The translations under genes were made by a program, and so were the position numbers. From positions 1 to 62,810 of IMG/VR virus record IMGVR_UViG_3300025652_007521: a DNA stretch of 62,810 nt; one strand, given 5' to 3'. This stretch comes from a virus. Its lineage: Duplodnaviria; Caudoviricetes. The notes under the pieces were generated by a model. The model ran no database searches. It was given only the letters and a program-made list of their open reading frames with translations, and was not told the origin of the DNA. Position 1 is the stretch's first letter, and each line of letters starts with the position of its first letter. Below, piece by piece: positions 5,388 to 44,818 of the stretch.

Positions 5388-5645
5388 ATGAGTATTATTA
5401 TTCCATCATCACCCGCAGATCGTAAGACCATTAAAGATGCAATGACTGAAATTTCTAATTCAATGGTTCGTATCGAAGGTGAAAAAGCTTTTATCAAAGA
5501 AGCAATTGAAGAACTAAATGATAAAGTTGATATCGATAAGAAGTATCTAAATAAGCTGGCTCGAGTATATCATAAACAAACTCTTGCTCAAGCCACTGCA
5601 GAAATGGAAGACCTAGAAGCACTATATGAGTCTTGCCTTAAGTAA
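5388..5645 (+). CDS. dsbA: Double-stranded DNA-binding protein (T4 DsbA-like)
   Basis: 85 aa, helical, with L.KLARVYHKQ motif; neighbours gp33 and gp59 as in T4. Confidence 0.7.
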   Translation: MSIIIPSSPADRKTIKDAMTEISNSMVRIEGEKAFIKEAIEELNDKVDIDKKYLNKLARVYHKQTLAQATAEMEDLEALYESCLK

Positions 5646-5646
5646 A

Positions 5647-6234
5647 ATGGATCCATTCGAGTCTTATAAACTGTATAACGCATTAAAGCTACATTTTGAA
5701 ACAGATGGGTATGATGCTGTTAAGTACCGTTATAAGACTCGGGTGAATCCTCAATCTTTCTTTAAACGTAGAGACAAGTATTTCTTTGCTAAGCTGGGTA
5801 AGACATACGGTAAAGATCTTGTTAAGTATTATGTGTCTAACTTTATAAAGGATGTAGGATATGTAGGTGATATGCTAGGTCCTGATGGAGAAGCTAACTA
5901 TAATGATATGATGAAGGTACATGAATCTTTATCGTATAGGTTTAAAAATGATATAAATATATTATCATCAATGGTCAACTCATTTGATGAATTGCTAGAG
6001 TGTCAAGATAACGAATACCCAGTAGTTATTAAAGCATTCATGCAAGAAGAAATTTGTTTAGAAACTGTGGTCATACTAAATAAACTCACAAGGTTTATTG
6101 ATAGGGCAGATAAACAAATAACCGAGACTATCATGTGGCCTGATATCTCACGTAAAGTTCATAAATACGATCCATACGTTTCGATTGACCGAGACAAAAT
6201 GAAAAAGATTGTAATGAAGTCCTTTACAAATTAG
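5647..6234 (+). CDS. gp59: Helicase loader gp59
   Basis: Y..Y.ALKLHF...YD..KY and F.KR.DKYFF.KL motifs, I.LET..IL; immediately upstream of gp32. Confidence 0.88.
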   Translation: MDPFESYKLYNALKLHFETDGYDAVKYRYKTRVNPQSFFKRRDKYFFAKLGKTYGKDLVKYYVSNFIKDVGYVGDMLGPDGEANYNDMMKVHESLSYRFKNDINILSSMVNSFDELLECQDNEYPVVIKAFMQEEICLETVVILNKLTRFIDRADKQITETIMWPDISRKVHKYDPYVSIDRDKMKKIVMKSFTN

Positions 6235-6315: not shown

Positions 6316-7209
6316 ATGTCTTTAAGTAATTTAAAATCTAGTCGTGGCTCGTCCATTGACAAACTCGTTCAAGCAGCAGAAGCTGTATCTCAAAAAGCAG
6401 AAACAAAATCATACGGTGATGACCGTTTTTGGAAACCCTCACGCGATAAAGCTGGTAATGGCTATGCAGTAGTTCGTTTCCTTCCGCCTAAGGAAGGTGA
6501 AGATCTACCGTGGGCTCGTTATTGGGATCATGGTTTTCAAGGTCCAACCGGTATGTGGTATATCGAAAACTCATTGACTTCTATTGGACAGGATGATCCA
6601 GTTTCAGAAGCAAACACCATTCTATGGAATAGTGGTCGAGATGAAGATAAAGCACTTGCTCGTGAACGTAAGCGTCGTTTACATTATGTTTCAAATATCC
6701 TTGTTATCTCGGATCCTTCTAACCCAGAGAATGAAGGTAAAGTATTCCTTTATAAGTTTGGTAAGAAAATCTTTGATAAGATTATGGATGTAATGCAACC
6801 TCAATTCCAAGATGAAGATCCTGTCAACCCTTATGATTTCTGGGAAGGTGCTGACTTTAAGATTAAGATTCGTAAGGTTGAAGGTTGGGTTAACTACGAC
6901 AAGTCAGAGTTTGGTTCTCAGTCTGCTCTATTTAATTCGGATGAAGATAAACTAGAAGAAGTATATTCTAAGGTTCATTCTTTAACTGATTTTACTAAGC
7001 CTGAAAACTATAAGTCTTATGCAGAATTGAAAGCTAAGTTCAATAAGGTTCTAGGTGTAGAAGCTGGTCCTATTGCTGCAGAACCTGTAGTAGCTCAATC
7101 GGTTGCTGAACCAGTCATGGCTGCTGAATCTGCTCCGGTAGGTAATACAGCTGAAGCTGAAGAAGATGATACTCTTAGCTACTTTGCTAAGCTAGCTCAA
7201 GAGAGTTAA
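6316..7209 (+). CDS. gp32: Single-stranded DNA-binding protein gp32
   Basis: DDRFWKP..DKAGNGYAVVRFLP, HGFQGPTGMWYIENSLT, KFGKKIFDKI, NYDKSEF; acidic tail ending DDTLSYFAKLA. Confidence 0.97.
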   Translation: MSLSNLKSSRGSSIDKLVQAAEAVSQKAETKSYGDDRFWKPSRDKAGNGYAVVRFLPPKEGEDLPWARYWDHGFQGPTGMWYIENSLTSIGQDDPVSEANTILWNSGRDEDKALARERKRRLHYVSNILVISDPSNPENEGKVFLYKFGKKIFDKIMDVMQPQFQDEDPVNPYDFWEGADFKIKIRKVEGWVNYDKSEFGSQSALFNSDEDKLEEVYSKVHSLTDFTKPENYKSYAELKAKFNKVLGVEAGPIAAEPVVAQSVAEPVMAAESAPVGNTAEAEEDDTLSYFAKLAQES

Positions 7210-7212
7210 ACA

Positions 7213-7274
7213 CCGTAGTAAAACCTACGGGCCAATAAGAAGTATGGGCTTTGCGTCTAACATTGGAACCATAC
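7213..7274 (+). ncRNA. Candidate structured RNA: hairpin plus pseudoknot downstream of gp32
   Basis: CCGTAG/CTACGG hairpin (7213-7230); crossing helices CCAAT(7232-36)/ATTGG(7262-66) and GTATGG(7242-47)/CCATAC(7269-74). Confidence 0.5.
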
Positions 7275-7282
7275 CACCCTTT

Positions 7283-7310
7283 AAAGGAGTCCTTCGGGGC
7301 TCCTTTTTTT
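7283..7310 (+). terminator. Rho-independent terminator after gp32
   Basis: AAAGGAGTCC-TTCG-GGGCTCC-TTTTTTT, with a UUCG tetraloop and U-tract. Confidence 0.93.
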
Positions 7311-7320
7311 ATATATAATA

Positions 7321-7397
7321 TAGAGTGGTCATCTTTATCGACTCGCATAGGTTCATGCGTCAAAACGAATCGTATAATCCGAACAAGGAGAATTACG
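7321..7397 (+). ncRNA. Candidate cis-regulatory leader RNA of the YRG peptide gene
   Basis: Hairpin CGCAT-AGGTTC-ATGCG, extendable by GA/TC. The loop GTTC is complementary to GAAC (7381-84), which abuts the AAGGAG RBS. Confidence 0.4.
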
Positions 7398-7457
7398 ATG
7401 AAAGAACTAGTATATATCTATCGTGGTGTAAAATACGTAAAGCAAGTAAAAGCGTAA
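7398..7457 (+). CDS. 19-aa YRG-motif peptide (DUF4278-like), MKELVYIYRGVKYVKQVKA
   Basis: AAGGAG RBS 7 nt before ATG, YRGVKY motif and its own terminator. This is the real 3' part of track ORF 7251..7457. Confidence 0.8.
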   Translation: MKELVYIYRGVKYVKQVKA

Positions 7458-7465
7458 ACCAAACC

Positions 7466-7493
7466 GAGGACTCGCAATGGGTCCTCTTTTTTT
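7466..7493 (+). terminator. Rho-independent terminator after the YRG peptide
   Basis: GAGGACTC-GCAAT-GGGTCCTC-TTTTTTT. Confidence 0.88.
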
Positions 7494-7495
7494 AT

Positions 7496-7503
7496 TATAA
7501 ATA
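7496..7503 (+). promoter_or_regulatory. T4-type late promoter (gp55-dependent)
   Basis: TATAAATA, 5 nt before the gp4 ATG. Confidence 0.85.
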
Positions 7504-7508
7504 ATGTT

Positions 7509-7976
7509 ATGGCTTATTCAGGTAGATACAAAATAAAAAAACCAGAAAAATATGTAGGTGATCCAAGTAAAGTTACGTATAGATCTTTATGGGAACGACA
7601 AGCATTTAAATGGTGTGAGAATAATTCGAAGGTTGTTGCTTGGAACTCTGAAGAAGTTGTTGTGCCATACAAATATAAAGTCGATAAAAAGTATCATCGT
7701 TATTTTGTAGATCTACTTATTAAAATGGATAATGGTGATATCATACTTATAGAAATCAAACCAAAGAAAGAAACAGCCCCTCCTAAAAAACCTGCACGTC
7801 AGACTAAAAGATATATTAATGAGGTAACTACTTATATTAAAAATACTGATAAATGGAATGCTGCACAGAAATATGCAGAAGATCGTGGTTGGAAGTTTGA
7901 AGTCTGGACTGAAGATACTCTTAAAAGTCTTGGAATAAAATTAGTCGGTGGTCCTATAAAGAAGAAGAAAAAGTAG
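7509..7976 (+). CDS. gp4: Head completion nuclease gp4 (TnsA-like PD-(D/E)xK fold)
   Basis: AYSGRY...P.KY.GDP....YRSLWE, W.SEE..VPY, HRYFVD, IEIKP, N..KW.AA. Confidence 0.93.
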   Translation: MAYSGRYKIKKPEKYVGDPSKVTYRSLWERQAFKWCENNSKVVAWNSEEVVVPYKYKVDKKYHRYFVDLLIKMDNGDIILIEIKPKKETAPPKKPARQTKRYINEVTTYIKNTDKWNAAQKYAEDRGWKFEVWTEDTLKSLGIKLVGGPIKKKKK

Positions 7977-8036: not shown

Positions 8037-8046
8037 TATTTTTGGA

Positions 8047-8054
8047 TATAAATA
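8047..8054 (+). promoter_or_regulatory. T4-type late promoter
   Basis: TATAAATA, 5 nt before the gp2 ATG at 8060. Confidence 0.85.
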
Positions 8055-8059
8055 AAGGT

Positions 8060-8653
8060 ATGGCAAGTCTATTTGATACACTACAAGCACAGGCTTTTAG
8101 AGCTGGCATTAAAACGAGAACAGATCAATCTAAGAATTGGTTTCGTAAAAATGTCGCTAAACTAGGTGATGTAGATCGTCGTAGTCTTTTAAAAGATGAT
8201 GCACTTGATCCTACAACAAAAGAAATAGCTGGTAACATGTACATGTACTTTTATGATCCAAAGCATAAAGCTACACTACCATATTATGATCGGTTCCCAT
8301 TAATTATTATGGTTGAGCCAGCTGAAGGTGGTTTCTATGGATTAAATTTACATTACCTAGCACCAGGTGTAAGAGCAAGATTTTTAGATGAGTTAATGAA
8401 GACTGCACCGAAAAAAGTTGGTGAAAATTCTCGTCTTACAAAGATGCGATATGATTTGTTAAAAGGTGTAAAAAAATATAAAGAGTTTCAACCTTGTTTT
8501 AAACATTATTTAACAAGTCAAATAAAAGGTAGAATGGTAAGAGTTCCGATGACTGAATGGGAAATCGCAATCTTTTTACCAACAGAACAATTTAAGAAAG
8601 TTAAAGCGGAAACTGTTTGGAGATATTCTCGCAAACAATATACAGGTAAATAA
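8060..8653 (+). CDS. gp2: DNA end protector protein gp2
   Basis: MYFYDPKHK.TLPYYDRFPL, GLNLHYL.P..R, PCFKHYL, W.IA.FLP. Confidence 0.93.
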   Translation: MASLFDTLQAQAFRAGIKTRTDQSKNWFRKNVAKLGDVDRRSLLKDDALDPTTKEIAGNMYMYFYDPKHKATLPYYDRFPLIIMVEPAEGGFYGLNLHYLAPGVRARFLDELMKTAPKKVGENSRLTKMRYDLLKGVKKYKEFQPCFKHYLTSQIKGRMVRVPMTEWEIAIFLPTEQFKKVKAETVWRYSRKQYTGK

Positions 8654-8655
8654 GA

Positions 8656-9363
8656 ATGGCAAAATCAATCGACGATTTTAAAGCAATTGTTACTAAGAGA
8701 CAAGGTCTTGCAAAGACCAATCGCTTTTTGACAATTTTTACTCCACCTACTCAATCGTTAATTAATTTAAACCCACTTGATATTGTTGGTCGTATTGCCA
8801 ACGAAACTTTTAATGCTAGGAGTTTAATAAACGATCCAAGAGATATTGCGTTTCTTACTGAATCAGCAACATTACCTGGTCGTAGTCTTAATACCCTAGA
8901 TTTTTCTGCAGAAAAAGAAACATTAAAATTACCTAATGGATTTATTGATGATGATGTCACAATGACGTTTTATTTAACAAACGATTATTATATGAAAGAT
9001 ATGATGGAGACTTGGATGTCATCAATTGTTGATACAGAAAAATATCAATTAGGTTATAAAAAGAATTATCAAACAGATATTGTAATACAGCAATTAAATA
9101 CCTTTGATAAAAATATATACGGTGTTAAATTAATTAACGCGTATCCAATATCAATAGGAGCACTTGCTCTAAACAACGAATCTGAGAATGCATTTCAAAG
9201 ATTACAAGTTACATTTGCATACGATAGATATGTACCACAAAATTTTATAGATTCATCTATATCTGGCGCAATATCAGCATTACCGAATGAAGTGAAAAGA
9301 TTATTACCAGATAAAATGCAAAGCGGATTGAAAAATTTTACAACAGTTAGTTCATTATTTTAA
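8656..9363 (+). CDS. Tail tube-like protein / baseplate tail-tube initiator (gp54/gp19 family)
   Basis: R.GLA..NRF, ..LPGR, W...I, Y..DI.I.QL, L..AYP.SI, V.FAY; paralogous to gp19 at 61448. Confidence 0.8.
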   Translation: MAKSIDDFKAIVTKRQGLAKTNRFLTIFTPPTQSLINLNPLDIVGRIANETFNARSLINDPRDIAFLTESATLPGRSLNTLDFSAEKETLKLPNGFIDDDVTMTFYLTNDYYMKDMMETWMSSIVDTEKYQLGYKKNYQTDIVIQQLNTFDKNIYGVKLINAYPISIGALALNNESENAFQRLQVTFAYDRYVPQNFIDSSISGAISALPNEVKRLLPDKMQSGLKNFTTVSSLF

Positions 9364-43700: not shown

Positions 43701-44818
43701 TGGTAACGAGTGGTGATGTTACAATTAAAGATAGTGGTGTTGCTACAGCTGAAATTGCAAATAATGCAGTTACTTTTGCTAAGATGCAAAATGTTGCAAC
43801 TGATACCATCATGGGTCGCACGGCTAGCGGAACAGGTGACCCTAAGGCATTAAGTGCTACTGAAGCTCGTGGAATACTTAATGTTGCAAATGGTGCTGAT
43901 AAGTTTTCATCATTCAATATAAGAGCAAATACTAACTCTGGAACAGCCGGTGCAGGTCATGCTATCGCATCAGGCAAAATGATTGCTTTCCAGGGTGTTG
44001 GTGCAACTAGTATTACACGATCAGGCGGTACTATTAAGATAAGCTCTAATAACACAACTTATAAAGCCGCGGGTGGAACTAGTTACTCCAATGCCGCCGG
44101 CATTTATCTAGATGGTACTACCTTTAAGCTTGGATATGTTATTAGACCTCATAAAAATCTGTATATTGGTAATAACTTAAAGACTCAAATACTATTCCAC
44201 GGTAATTCGGGTGGCGGTAGAGATGAAGATCCTTATATAAACTTCTATACTTCGCAAAGTGGTTCTAGAGCAATGACGATGCGCGTTGCAAAACATATGA
44301 CAGCAAGCGGAAGAGGAACTCCTAGTTCTGCTAATTCTCATAAAGCTGTTCTTTATGGAATGTACTCAGCTGAAGTTGATAAAACAATTCCAACATACGA
44401 AAGAGAACTTACTAGTAAAAAATACGTTGATTCTCTACAACCACAAATGGGTGCATGCTATCATACTGGATCAAAAGCCGCTAAATTATATAACTGTAGT
44501 GTAGCTAAGAATGGAACGGGTCGATATACAATAACGACAAGTCGTAATGAATCTGGCCAATATATGATTCCAGTTGCTTCTTTAGCAAATGATCAACCTA
44601 CACATGGTGGCACTAAGGGTGATAATACCGCAAATCCACTAGAATACAGTATTACTGCTAGGAGAACCGGGGCACGCACCATATTAGTTGAAATATTTAG
44701 AGTTAGATCTGCTAATGGGCATGGTGGTGGTAATGATCATAATGAGGTTGCAATATTCCATCGTGAGTTTATTGATCAATATTGGACATGTATGTTCTAT
44801 TTTGGAGAAGGTAAATAA
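34766..44818 (+). CDS. Giant 3350-aa fibre protein (segmented coiled-coil, fibritin-like region plus tail-fibre beta repeats)
   Basis: N-terminal SFEEWRQ.TNEIS..LG; about 23 helical repeats; many G.VGIGT..P and ELY...KFET fibre motifs; Gly/Thr/Ser/Asn-rich. Confidence 0.8.
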   Translation: MAQNKEIRVPKTSSFEEWRQSTNEISFDLGPIESDDNKNADSLDKETRLTDQAKIINVSTGVSTATSVDVGASAPWQGWNDFFALDGSTGKGASLGGFGGTLSGLGVGGTEIDDQEFSVAANGNITLAPNTSVYASNDLRATQGGTNYAQSGGDGGAYIEFNTFQKNTAWRGKTLQFTGDVNSNSLHSRYTVEAYIRTLDITNNYALLSEATAVITSANDWDISLDIEEGSNVEVQVGFTFGGRNANVSGSFDDGSIVVNNVELNVSIGASEIIDLDEEFIRDQSNGSNDVGMRIDLAPDKKLDMTAGYIIMDGASGHPTDFAVGNSVVQFTDNNNSNERVFTGDIVGITKDSTGNNISKLLITNVVGSFNPGLNLGSETNYSTQIVLAARLVRQVVGSLDFGYVRVYKTNSGTITKLEQSVTAANGFHLPRATFALPLTSGSTLPSSFIEGERIYQTADGNVESASNISSFSAVVLLGTTTAGKYALGSHGGFILYDVIGTFDPNRRLRGTTTPSATVEASRFSASHADCSIDNTFSSIIRLNTPAVTGDSYEIEFASAVDAIVELQDDIGKIEDLPTNTVQAGFGATGDRKAFDTTDLVTTLNTLQDMIGNAEMPIIANNEHLIPANVNTISGLAKSIVDFIGDTNLSDANLGATANTSSTLTNAITTIKNFIGSTDISDITTGENVTTTIAQLHDEVGDVELLDDTATTSAAGFNTNVLTTALIELRTLVCPGDIDAAKTALSANVAPAANFAATTNTDGIVELQTIVGDRVGISTANLIGTAAATNNIVAQINHIKDEIGTAALLTTSNGDIASAINELETNIRGTVNNYTITDNLPSDITYTVNNGIITAINTLTSFVGDTSLDAIGSSNTITSAVDKIHIELGEPDALNSAPTAYNDTSGQETDGVGGFRNAVAETASEATVVSALTELRQALVGNTANLAAVTNARIDTATSATIQNAITDLANLAGYSKTNVIDSILEIQDLMGDVTSLNNADNDFNSARITDSLVELKTALVGTGDLTDTIATLNVNDETDFSATTVVNAIGELQTDLGQQSLLSASPFHADLYTTTGSDVYASTDFQLAINGITAAIGNADIGNAINSGSNETLTQAIRQLRIDIGDVGDSGVNLAAAIGYSATNLKAAVLEIQGDIGDVTNINNAAGYVATSAVTGITEIQGLIGNPVATAANLGAINTRVQKDTDADVDAGETTIPMADTTGIVVGMTVLNIETGRTDSIAAGTKVTTVNSDSVVISPITDGVINDGDTLRFDVSTVVNAINAIDSRIGSEINAATMGTTAATLVPAIKEITDELGDVTAGNLGTTSSTIVTSIRELVDGTGAATRAVSGVTGLKPSGKLDKISGTSTVTKNPTVTANTGQANITVADASNLVIGAVVTGTNIPSDAYIESISNNVITLNKNITVANVTTGTTLTFTMDQSIFSNINFFAPGTAENEETTLKFGPNTILDVSEGTLKMSSASAAFQVQSTYLKLQGTSKTGSGLQIDRSEMPNVAIEASSDAFIEWREDLISNNNPSSAHNLNDLAWRVRGLTADDTSAAAYTVPNLDFQNAYRLFGIGIFNNANTMDNVTVTWDATEKHFNVSLNDTTTDMTGGGTGPAGSGATAGLTAWGTAGKMPQIHVDRQGRIAGIAEVSMTGFLGNFTLKGDSGSDLLVAADNNVHITGTAGEIETSISDVSGTRTIQVGLPSNVDVDGALTVAGDIDFNTTGTVSIGTADTEVNIPGELNVFNLNVSGTQTTSTVSNTTISGDAFVLRAENSNVPANDDTPKFVVGRGFNTTKNITQLVAGLRYKIVSGTGFTSVGASNNNVGTIFTATGAGTGSSTAKLQRDEAAIAWSEQYDQFILTRAGTAGAVSTNTQQGAIIAQGDTIGSATKFTVATNSTNADRQVLFMAADGTSSLMRDGGLHYNPSTNVLKVNHGSNYTTISNSGNHFDSNITVRDTVGSGARQIKIEGANAILQLVENDANVANNPSWWHVADGGHYSIRLNNTGAYPLQIGTNADNNAVSHIDLNYHTDITGGLDVISGGTNLKGLQQVGLFTQMRNDVTQVGSTLGHTSGSTSIGAEFKGRVNTSGDLSVLEIRDERVISQTDGSESFGSATKQLQHKINGTRMSFLEFYGTSGNTHFAQLGGISHEVRKSYLLGQGNGATRLYHNTADAQASQDVLQTKSGGINISGNLEADSADVTGDLVIGTFKTQAYGQSSLVPKSPVHIIKTVSNGTTNTLLTLETVQSDITTTPNKQNIDFRIQDTNNAANLARISAAVDHGANGGTYGSVSHGEACSNLIFGTTNNGTFGEKMIITGRGAVGIGTLNPTVTLDVDGTAKASSFVVIRDAASEIKIQKSSGNTAYINKVILSNTNFNDKGGAIFAQSSQVGAAIGDSSTQATFTARNNNDSYLQIIDERSRLSGSSTSPRDWSKSHKRIEFGIDSTRMAYLAANWNENYGFEIGSASRNTTDPFRSNARPWIRFRRAASYNGPGAVELYHGNTDAAGSTKKFETLNVGAKVTGQLSTTGKLGVGTDSPECDGLHVTNLTSSTIAGATMANAKLLVGTAADGIGLDNNEIVCSAGNFYIRTLNGSAGHINFGTSTSNNMVLTDGGNVGINVGDAPGQKLDVGGNIKLSGFIDQNGTGTNDFEGQIDCNKDVKTTASGKGFYAFGGGSDYLKMIHDGAGGHITSNDKLEIETPLFEVRKSAAGELMIRATNDNSVDLYYNNALRFKTTSTGASLPGTSRAIEAIANNQTFVDNSKLHVAEINFAQGNAPTDSAAIRYVSTTDGARNRSALDFRISDDYSNTASMADKFRFRFDPTGTTVNSGNEYSLIEIYAKANGSTMMDLTPSPGGSSNVKSDVFTGALTGNASTATTLSATLAVSKGGTGNTAFADKAVIISQDSGTDKLSAVTMSTNGQLLIGGTSGPAAATLSAGNGIDITNGNGTITVTAETATSGNPGVAKFNTANFLVTSGDVTIKDSGVATAEIANNAVTFAKMQNVATDTIMGRTASGTGDPKALSATEARGILNVANGADKFSSFNIRANTNSGTAGAGHAIASGKMIAFQGVGATSITRSGGTIKISSNNTTYKAAGGTSYSNAAGIYLDGTTFKLGYVIRPHKNLYIGNNLKTQILFHGNSGGGRDEDPYINFYTSQSGSRAMTMRVAKHMTASGRGTPSSANSHKAVLYGMYSAEVDKTIPTYERELTSKKYVDSLQPQMGACYHTGSKAAKLYNCSVAKNGTGRYTITTSRNESGQYMIPVASLANDQPTHGGTKGDNTANPLEYSITARRTGARTILVEIFRVRSANGHGGGNDHNEVAIFHREFIDQYWTCMFYFGEGK
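36435..38790 (+). repeat. Protein-level repeat array in the giant fibre (about 23 units, consensus TxxxAIxELxxxIGD)
   Basis: Examples: SAVDAIVELQDDIGK, NVIDSILEIQDLMGD, NLKAAVLEIQGDIGD, TLVPAIKEITDELGD. Boundaries are approximate. Confidence 0.8.

Follow-up and report, generated by a model that had tools for sequence, protein, structure and literature searches.

What does a 19-codon open reading frame (ORF) do behind a structured leader of its own in T4-like phage DNA, and does this leader belong to a known class of regulatory RNA? The question is raised by positions 7311-7493 of IMG/VR virus record IMGVR_UViG_3300025652_007521. The whole stretch analysed, hereafter called the window, covers 62,810 nucleotides (nt); this 62.8-kb window is a fragment of an uncultured viral record with T4-like gene content, in which a short unit encoding a YRG peptide sits between gp32 and a gp4-like gene. 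An initial annotation had read the unit as a stand-alone mini-operon with a possible new ligand-sensing RNA. From the sequence comparisons reported below, the leader is predicted to be a regulatory-RNA family not yet catalogued, tied to YRG/DUF4278-like genes. On the strength of its architecture, its conservation and its gene association, we consider it a well-founded riboswitch candidate. The reading of its role that we prefer, at a probability of roughly 45%, is a cis-acting translational gate combined with a metabolite effector that would report nitrogen status.

The unit is a self-contained cassette made of a promoter word, a leader of about 75 nt, a 19-codon ORF and a terminator. All the parts of the proposed mini-operon, including its two terminators, were found in place on the plus strand. 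The upstream edge is a predicted intrinsic terminator behind gp32 (7283-7313), whose stem-loop (7283-7306) has 10 pairs, five of them GC, and a loop of 4 nt, followed by a T-run. The downstream edge is a second predicted terminator behind the peptide ORF (7466-7493; stem-loop 7466-7486 and T-run). Both hairpins are G+C-rich and are followed by at least seven T each, which, judged from sequence alone, qualifies them as intrinsic terminators. A scan of 3 kb returned 10 terminator-like sites against 1.6 ± 1.2 in shuffled sequences, and in many relatives a G+C hairpin with a T-run likewise follows the YRG ORF. Between these edges, a promoter-like AT word, TATATATAATA (7310-7320, with TATAAT at 7314-7319), precedes the leader, which extends from an inferred start site at about 7322-7326 to 7397 (72-76 nt) and carries the Shine-Dalgarno (SD) sequence AGGAG at 7386-7390. 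The ORF for the 19-residue (aa) peptide MKELVYIYRGVKYVKQVKA, a one-repeat YRG, DUF4278-like peptide, occupies 7398-7457 (ATG 7398; stop TAA 7455-7457). Outside the unit and marking its edge, the T4-type late promoter word TATAAATA (7496-7503, plus strand) stands before the gp4-like gene. A 58-codon, TTG-started ORF on the minus strand (7187-7363), opposite the terminator and the leader, is probably spurious.

The cassette recurs in other viral contigs. Back-translation of VYIYRGVKY gave 17 further viral loci, and 17/17 carry a near-identical leader and an ORF for the same peptide (MK/MTKELVYIYRGVKY...), which bears out the 19-aa YRG peptide of the initial annotation; 16 of these ORFs are complete, at 18-20 codons, and one is cut by the contig end. 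A pattern built on hairpin P1 of the leader and the first bases of the linker behind it retrieved 104 viral loci, 94 with a whole leader and a YRG ORF and 10 that are chance matches. The resulting family contains 55 distinct leaders and 44 distinct complete peptides that fall into several classes: 18-20 aa (MKELVYIYRGVKY.., MTKELTFIYRGVKY..), 27-28 aa (MTVELTYRGVSYTKK.., MSYELTYRGV.., MN/DYTMTYRGVKY..) and 53-54 aa with three YRG repeats (MNTLMYRGAS..TYRGAFY..HTYRGVEFSS). A covariance model built de novo from the phage leaders (R1), a check that the initial annotation had suggested, captured a conserved structure: 56/56 members score 57-114 bits, the window itself 101, and 0/15 chance pattern matches reach E≤0.01. 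The window and five large phage records have a single leader copy each. The contexts of the cassette differ, since it is found after gp32 in T4-like phages, before a small-terminase gene with a sigma-70 promoter, and after a tail-fibre-like ORF.

Searches of other collections returned little. Among GenBank phage records, the leader query met only terminator look-alikes in Bacillus phages and the peptide had no tblastn match at E≤10. A search with the alignment of class-D proteins yielded nothing but the same cassettes in viral contigs and, in genomes, one spurious 9-residue match, and the matches of alignment searches A4 (viral contigs) and A8 (metagenomes) were not confirmed. A word-index protein search returned six close relatives. 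In pattern scans of 185,579 species genomes, a 21-base pattern gave two matches, one of them real, and a 16-base pattern gave chance matches among the matches listed. The real one (L324/L441) is the only phage-type leader from these scans; it lies on a 44.6-kb contig of a Rhodobacteraceae bin, belongs to class MTIELTYRGVSY.. and scores 102.6 bits on a second covariance model, R2. This contig may be a mis-binned phage or a prophage, as the neighbouring ORFs have either no matches or matches to phage families only.

The leader is also present in bacteria. An exhaustive HMMER search with the alignment of three-repeat proteins yielded 13 representative proteins of 53-98 aa, three of which led to 12 loci, all in Porticoccaceae/SAR92-clade assemblies. 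R1 matches 12/12 of these cellular loci directly upstream of the three-repeat YRG ORF, with 29-37 bits (filters off). The chromosomal three-repeat proteins (L429-L440, L443-L453) are 57-60 aa long. With R2, one copy per genome was found, the motif occurring in 11 of 151 sampled Porticoccaceae genomes, and there was no match in 150 other genomes of the same order. The cellular leaders have a promoter of the TTGACC-17-TAATAT type, and the start-codon region reads UUAUGAA. At the SAR92-type loci, a conserved 186-aa ORF with no Pfam match lies divergently next to the leader.

Because class-D phage leaders most resemble the cellular ones (AAAAGAC, same P2 register), the comparison suggests phage capture of the leader from SAR92-type bacteria, which would also be possible hosts of the carrier phages. 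The large carrier records, one of which is a complete genome of 144 kb, are T4-like, with gp32 present in 4/5, and the window gp32 is about 55% identical both to that of pelagiphage HTVC008M and to that of cyanophage S-RIM12. Since psbA occurs in 0/5 of the records and all cellular copies are from Porticoccaceae, the carriers look like phages of heterotrophic Gammaproteobacteria, not cyanophages.

Codon usage indicates that the peptide is real and under protein-level selection. Across 42 distinct short coding sequences, the Y, R and G residues are invariant while their codons vary (Tyr TAT 20/TAC 22; Arg CGT 9/AGA 29/CGC 4; Gly GGT 22/GGC 20). The V.Y.K that follows YRG is nearly as fixed, and ORF length is kept within each class. 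With hhalign, a profile of the short peptides aligned to the first repeat of the cellular three-repeat proteins at 92.6%, and to the phage three-repeat set at 32.5% only. In view of the former value, the window peptide is best read as a one-repeat remnant of a DUF4278-like protein, although it is not a Pfam member by score. The longer forms lie close to the Pfam cut-off for DUF4278 (PF14105), 25.3 bits: the 53-54 aa sister proteins score 23.7, 19.8, 24.9 and 26.1 bits, one of the four above the cut-off, and the cellular homologues 20.5-26.6 bits. The 27-aa forms match weakly (E 0.006-0.03) and the 20-aa forms do not match. The 18-20 codon phage ORFs that were looked up are absent from a collection of 15 billion proteins, which shows that they escape gene callers. 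At one locus (L133, 453-503), a frame change shortens a three-repeat YRG gene to 17 codons, the rest being readable downstream in another frame; this is either an artefact of sequencing or a natural step between the long and the mini forms.

The leader folds into four helices, P0 to P3, with an invariant A-rich linker joining P1 to P2. Hence the structured leader of roughly 75 nt in the initial annotation holds, with a length of 72-76 nt and helices conserved among the 55 distinct leaders. P0 (7327-7343, plus strand as for all elements of the leader; GGUC 7327-7330 with GACU 7340-7343, loop 7331-7339) abuts P1 and was found in 55/55 distinct leaders by per-sequence helix finding. In the cellular leaders it is AGGCA/UGCCU, AGAUA/UGUCU or GGUG/CACC. 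P1 (7344-7359) pairs CGCAU (7344-7348) with AUGCG (7355-7359) around the loop AGGUUC (7349-7354). Its stem is unvarying in 56/56 phage leaders and in all 22 Porticoccaceae leaders examined, where the loop is the 5-nt UGAUC. The single stem variant, L454, comes from a metagenome contig (CGCA/UGCG, loop UUGAACC) and scores 45.6 bits; a pattern scan that left the P1 3' strand free gave only chance matches and no further stem variants. The linker, UCAAAACGA (7360-7368), has the family consensus U-N-AAAA-(N)-GA, and its columns are invariant in alignment A1 and the same in the cellular leaders.

P2 and P3 enclose the initiation region. P2 (7369-7399; AUCGUA 7369-7374 with UACGAU 7394-7399) surrounds the SD and extends over the first two bases of the AUG. 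All 55 leaders have this helix, with class-specific sequences (AUCGUA/UACGAU, UACUUC/GAAGUA, CAUUGAA/UUCGAUG and G-U variants); in L140 it reads CGUG/CACG by eye, and in the cellular leaders CRCUU/AAGUG. Within it, P3 (7378-7390) pairs an anti-SD UCC (7378-7380) with GGA (7387-7389) of the SD, its loop GAACA holding the GAAC at 7381-7384. P3 is lengthened by an inserted G+C hairpin in several phage leaders and in all Porticoccaceae leaders.

Covariation supports these helices. In P0, 4/4 pairs show compensatory changes (in 13, 16, 15 and 8 sequences) and 100% of cells are paired; this helix was also recovered blind by RNAalifold on the cellular and class-D leaders. P3 has 92% of its cells paired. 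P1 carries no covariation evidence, because its stem never varies. In the model-based alignment, 94.8% of pair cells are standard, compared with 22.8-40.2% when the partners are slid, and 60 cells are changed on both sides, compared with 16.0 ± 3.1 in shuffles (0/500 reach it), figures that lean towards structure as the alignment was fitted to the model. Unconstrained minimum free energy folds of the 55 leaders contain P0 in 49, P1 in 41 and P2 in 53, with the SD paired in 50 and the AUG paired in 50. The whole unit including the terminator folds with z -2.89 (0/200 shuffles as good). We relied on per-sequence helix finding and the model-based alignment because MAFFT misaligns P2 and P3 between classes; on MAFFT alignments, RNAalifold recovered the invariant P1 alone, or P0 alone. 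A 5' pseudoknot between the first transcript bases and the P0 loop was discarded, as the two are complementary in many but not all leaders and the bases may precede the start site. Overall, covariation-supported helices lie directly 5' of a homologous ORF in independent lineages, as expected of a structured cis-regulatory leader.

With what could the P1 loop pair? In the window, the CGCAT-AGGTTC-ATGCG hairpin (7344-7359) and the GAAC at 7381-7384, directly 5' of the ribosome-binding site, led the initial annotation to propose a GTTC:GAAC pairing. Both words are indeed present, but GAAC occupies this place in only 3/55 distinct leaders and is not conserved, so the pairing is specific to the lineage of the window. 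A candidate partner in the phage copies is GAACUA in codons 3-4 (Glu-Leu; 7404-7409, plus strand), which is complementary to the loop GGUUC. A G-R-R-C pairable with GUUC occurs near the ORF start in 24/24 distinct phage coding heads, in two reading registers: auG AAC in the MN.. classes and GAA Cua in the ..EL.. classes. In the latter register Glu is GAA in 37/39 and Leu is CUA in 37/39, compared with CUA for 17% of the Leu codons in the long ORFs of the window. Loop:ORF pairing of at least 5 bp is possible in 56/56, the fifth pair being G-U in some classes and U-A in others. The suppressed synonymous variation at GAACUA and the use of two registers therefore point to an RNA-level constraint, and the candidate loop:ORF pseudoknot would cover codons 1-5. 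As a universal feature it is ruled out by L140, by the cellular copies and by L454; the loop core is G-W-W-C and occurs in three versions, GUUC, GAUC and GAAC. GAAUC on the 5' side of P2 is complementary to the loop as well, the match reaching at least 5 bp in 42/56 leaders. This candidate alternative pairing would exclude P2.

The helices and the loop can be set against known RNA classes. That the leader is neither a glnA nor a Downstream-peptide RNA had been judged by eye; covariance-model searches agree, with no match in the window, the family or the cellular loci. Against Rfam 15, the leader had no match at gathering score in a scan of the whole window, and 7100-7700 gave only terminator look-alikes at E≤10. 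There was no match at E≤1 in 14 family loci and none at gathering score in 20 further gp32 loci, and the 12 cellular loci gave only sub-threshold, terminator-type matches at E≤0.1. The gathering scores of the two glutamine models are 33 bits (RF01704) and 35 bits (RF01739); nowhere in the window does RF01704 score above 6.3 bits, a value reached at 44511-44519. A literature search, to which most subscription journals and supplements were closed, returned papers on glutamine riboswitches and DUF4278 and no description of the leader.

By architecture alone, we take the leader to be akin to the small H-type-pseudoknot riboswitches SAM-II and preQ1-II: a hairpin loop could pair with a strand at or after the start codon, SD and AUG are occluded, and the A-rich strand after the hairpin could line the groove. 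Unlike these, it has an SD-containing P2/P3 hairpin inserted between the pseudoknot strands; there is no Rfam match, and the pseudoknot partner is not conserved in the cellular copies.

The glutamine-II class (RF01704, for example Prochlorococcus Yfr6) is similar in layout. Both have a leader of about 60-100 nt directly before a very short YRG/DUF4278 ORF, an initiation region inside the fold with translational control, and an occurrence in marine microbes and phages (PMC2864571, PMC6212724, PMC6698751). In glutamine-II, according to PMC6698751, the P2 loop contributes a GAACG that pairs with the 5'-terminal CGUUC, glutamine is coplanar with C1:G40, and the 3' strand of P2 ends next to the initiator. 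A highly diverged glutamine-II or glutamine-I riboswitch would share the cargo family; the short GUUC/GAAC long-range pairing possible in phage copies recalls the CGUUC/GAACG pseudoknot helix, the window has GAAC in its P2/P3 loop, and its P2 3' strand also ends by the initiator. We nevertheless find this highly improbable. Neither RF01704 nor RF01739 matches, and the features that define glutamine-II (CGUUC/GAACG, C1:G40, the G18/C19 strand) are missing from the leader. The topology differs, with two 5' hairpins and GUUC in a hairpin loop instead of at the 5' end; the equivalent of C1:G40 is G-U or U-A, the 'ls' G-C strand is not findable, and the SD pairs with a dedicated anti-SD inside P2. 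The cellular loop GAUC is without a partner, GAAC is in the P2 loop in just the three leaders mentioned above, and the hosts are Porticoccaceae-type Gammaproteobacteria, not picocyanobacteria. Glutamine-I (glnA, RF01739; the Synechocystis gifB/IF17 leader) is alike in its DUF4278 cargo and its link to nitrogen status, has been reported from pelagimyophage-like phages and, according to the Melnitz paper (PMC9004378), occurs in T4-like marine phages of heterotrophs; the leader described here is without its three-way junction and E-loop.

Is the cassette linked to nitrogen? The background given in the initial annotation, short DUF4278 genes behind glutamine riboswitches, agrees with the literature (PMC6212724; Weinberg 2010, PMC2864571), where both glutamine aptamers are described as mostly preceding DUF4278 genes, IF17 or IF17-like (Klaehn 2018, PMC6212724). 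The window peptide has in common with DUF4278 (PF14105) and the N-terminal part of IF17 the YRG repeat motif, the small size and the basic composition, and differs in being a single 19-aa repeat with no Pfam match. Prochlorococcus IF17-like proteins are described as lacking the IF17 C-terminal region crucial for glutamine synthetase binding (PMC6212724). At three of six SAR92-type loci (L443, L444, L446), the YRG gene adjoins ureD, with formamidase and a zinc-ribbon gene (L444, L446) or a urea-type periplasmic binding protein (L443) on its other side. The nitrogen link through the DUF4278 family and the urease and formamidase neighbours is circumstantial. The canonical glutamine riboswitch (RF01739) was found in 0/5 motif-bearing phage records and in 0/5 motif-bearing Porticoccaceae genomes, the Synechococcus elongatus control being matched; this fits, again circumstantially, a leader that takes the place of a glutamine riboswitch. 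A more specific proposal, which we regard as unlikely, is that it is a third, structurally distinct class of riboswitch sensing glutamine or another signal of nitrogen status, which would have evolved in SAR92/Porticoccaceae for YRG proteins and been captured by marine phages, with its cargo cut to one repeat of 18-20 residues.

The translational gate might work as follows. In the default fold, the SD would be occluded in P3 and the AUG in P2. An effector acting on the invariant module of P1, loop and linker would tip the leader from this closed fold to an open one or back. In the phage copies, the loop GGUUC could pair either with GAACU in codons 3-4 or with GAAUC in the 5' strand of P2, and the latter pairing would unzip P2. 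The effector would most likely be a small metabolite reporting nitrogen status, in a manner analogous to, yet distinct from, the glutamine riboswitches, so that the phage would make the peptide only in a given nitrogen state of the host. We favour a metabolite because of the small pseudoknot-capable architecture, the cargo family and the spread over unrelated phages and a bacterial family.

Several observations weigh against this gate. The leader of the window taken alone (7322-7401) folds at -17.7 kcal/mol, z -1.01, with 27/200 shuffles as good. As the window leader folds no better than shuffles, a single sequence proves little and the case rests on the relatives; these are themselves related, so that the cell counts exaggerate how many independent changes took place. 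The loop:ORF pairing is broken in L140 (loop AGAUUC), class D is without the loop:P2 pairing, and the control windows for loop:ORF pairing are noisy, reaching at least 5 bp in 5/56 and 24/56. The cellular copies, with the loop UGAUC, do not keep the ORF GAAC; given this variant and that of L454, no single loop partner is conserved family-wide. The window peptide matches 0 Pfam families at E≤10, and six-frame translation of the window gave no DUF4278 match. Concerning nitrogen, the other three of the six SAR92-type loci have unrelated neighbours, and in a second group (L448-L453) 0/6 have nitrogen genes, the neighbours being GST, MFS and COX15. Finally, riboswitch helices seldom have a stem free of sequence variation, and such a stem would be explained at least as well by a protein or trans-acting RNA that recognises it.

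The last point leads to an operator, in which P1 and the linker would be the binding site for the YRG peptide (feedback), for a host protein such as Hfq or for a host small RNA, binding of which would work the P2/P3 gate. That P1 never varies in the 56 phage and 22 Porticoccaceae leaders while the adjacent P0 covaries is the pattern expected if a partner reads the bases. Nothing accompanies the leader without exception but a basic peptide rich in Y, R and K, whose YRGV.Y.K core is invariant, and the linker AAAAGA resembles what we take to be an ARN motif for Hfq, which is the basis of the idea of Hfq or a small RNA. On the other hand, the peptides have only one Arg per repeat, and no RNA-binding role is known for DUF4278 proteins; in PMC6212724, IF17 is presented as an inhibitor of glutamine synthetase. 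The occurrence of the cassette in unrelated phage contexts argues against a partner protein specific to one phage lineage; as the leader spans very different phages and a bacterial family, the partner would have to be the peptide or a conserved host factor. We hold such an operator to be rather unlikely.

If the preferred gate operates, when would it be transcribed? The TATAAT at 7314-7319 shows that the promoter-like word noted initially is there, though a two-hexamer sigma-70 scan of 3 kb did not call TATATATAATA. The defining mark of a T4-type late promoter is the word TATAAATA, some 6-8 nt 5' of the start site. In the window, TATATATA(AT), which differs from TATAAATA at one base, stands where close relatives carry the exact late-promoter word; in L084 and L007 the exact word has the same offset as the AT word of the window. 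Exact TATAAATA lies a few bases 5' of P0 in 16/56 distinct upstream contexts and TTGACA-type sigma-70 promoters are found in 5/56, the remaining contexts having neither by the patterns used. Within the window, TATAAATA is not enriched (16 copies, 13.2 expected); 15/16 copies are on the plus (coding) strand. The unit and other family variants are present in RNA-library contigs from two studies (X15 and X16; X19), which as contigs are without information on ends, strand or level, and in which DNA carry-over is possible. A depth peak at 7342-7375 of the window (X16, X19), over the invariant P1 and linker, arises because contigs of other variants (the MTVEL.. class, the L198 type) align there and then diverge; hence, several family members co-occur in single samples.

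These data bear on a constitutive leader, in which P0 and P1 would be stabilising 5' hairpins and P2 and P3 would damp translation to a fixed low level, with no sensing. P0 sits at what is inferred to be the 5' end of the transcript. A ribosome could open the short, AU-rich P2 and P3 (the -17.7 kcal/mol above) unaided, and the RNA-library contigs cover the unit, spanning 7284-7657 of the window, and run past the second terminator. But a constitutive leader does not explain why phages and Porticoccaceae share 24 identical nt across P1, loop and linker although P0, P2 and P3 have drifted, nor does it account for the suppressed synonymous variation at GAACUA. We consider it distinctly unlikely.

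The size of the transcript, about 165 nt, and its promoter-terminator layout would also suit a dual-function small RNA that acts in trans through a seed made of the P1 loop and linker, the peptide being a second function. There is a precedent of a kind in Yfr6, which was first called non-coding and covers a DUF4278 ORF (PMC6212724, PMC2864571). This layout is not general: in several contexts, the leader follows an ORF without a promoter of its own, or the peptide ORF runs into the terminase gene without a terminator. Such a role in trans has, in our view, only the slightest probability.

Around the unit, the gene order of the window is T4-like: a gp33-like late transcription factor (5388-5645), gp59 (5626-6234), gp32 (6316-7209), the unit, the gp4-like head completion gene (7509-7976), a gp2-like end protector (8042-8653) and tail tube/baseplate genes starting at 8656 and 9382. 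Among 80 loci with related gp32, the cassette follows gp32 in three only (L002, L003, L007); where gp32 is most similar (94% identity), the three-repeat version stands at this site. A gp4-like gene comes directly after gp32 in 2/80 loci, one without the unit (L043, gap 141 nt) and one with it (L003, gap 349 nt). The gp32-gp4 gap was dropped as an insertion test, the gene order after gp32 being too variable. Elsewhere, in a non-T4 context (L082, L087, L089, L090, L093, L168; L196, L198), the cassette lacks a terminator and its promoter reads TTGACA-17-TATACT or TATAAT; a small-terminase gene (phrog_2538, E 9e-7) follows the peptide stop immediately or after 16 nt. At these loci, the micropeptide might serve as an upstream ORF coupled to terS.

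Both known classes of glutamine riboswitch have short DUF4278/YRG genes as their typical cargo; here, such genes are found behind a different, well-defined and extremely conserved leader. Occurring in heterotrophic bacteria of one family and in over 90 viral contigs, this leader is a new candidate for a riboswitch or regulatory RNA, and one that comes with natural P2, P3 and loop mutants. With cassettes grading from three repeats through 27 aa down to 19 aa, one can ask for the function of a minimal YRG repeat. SAR92-type Gammaproteobacteria are pointed to as the source of the cassette, and are perhaps the hosts of uncultured 140-kb T4-like phages. If the leader is the third class of riboswitch proposed above, a phage carrying it could read the nitrogen status of its host late in infection.

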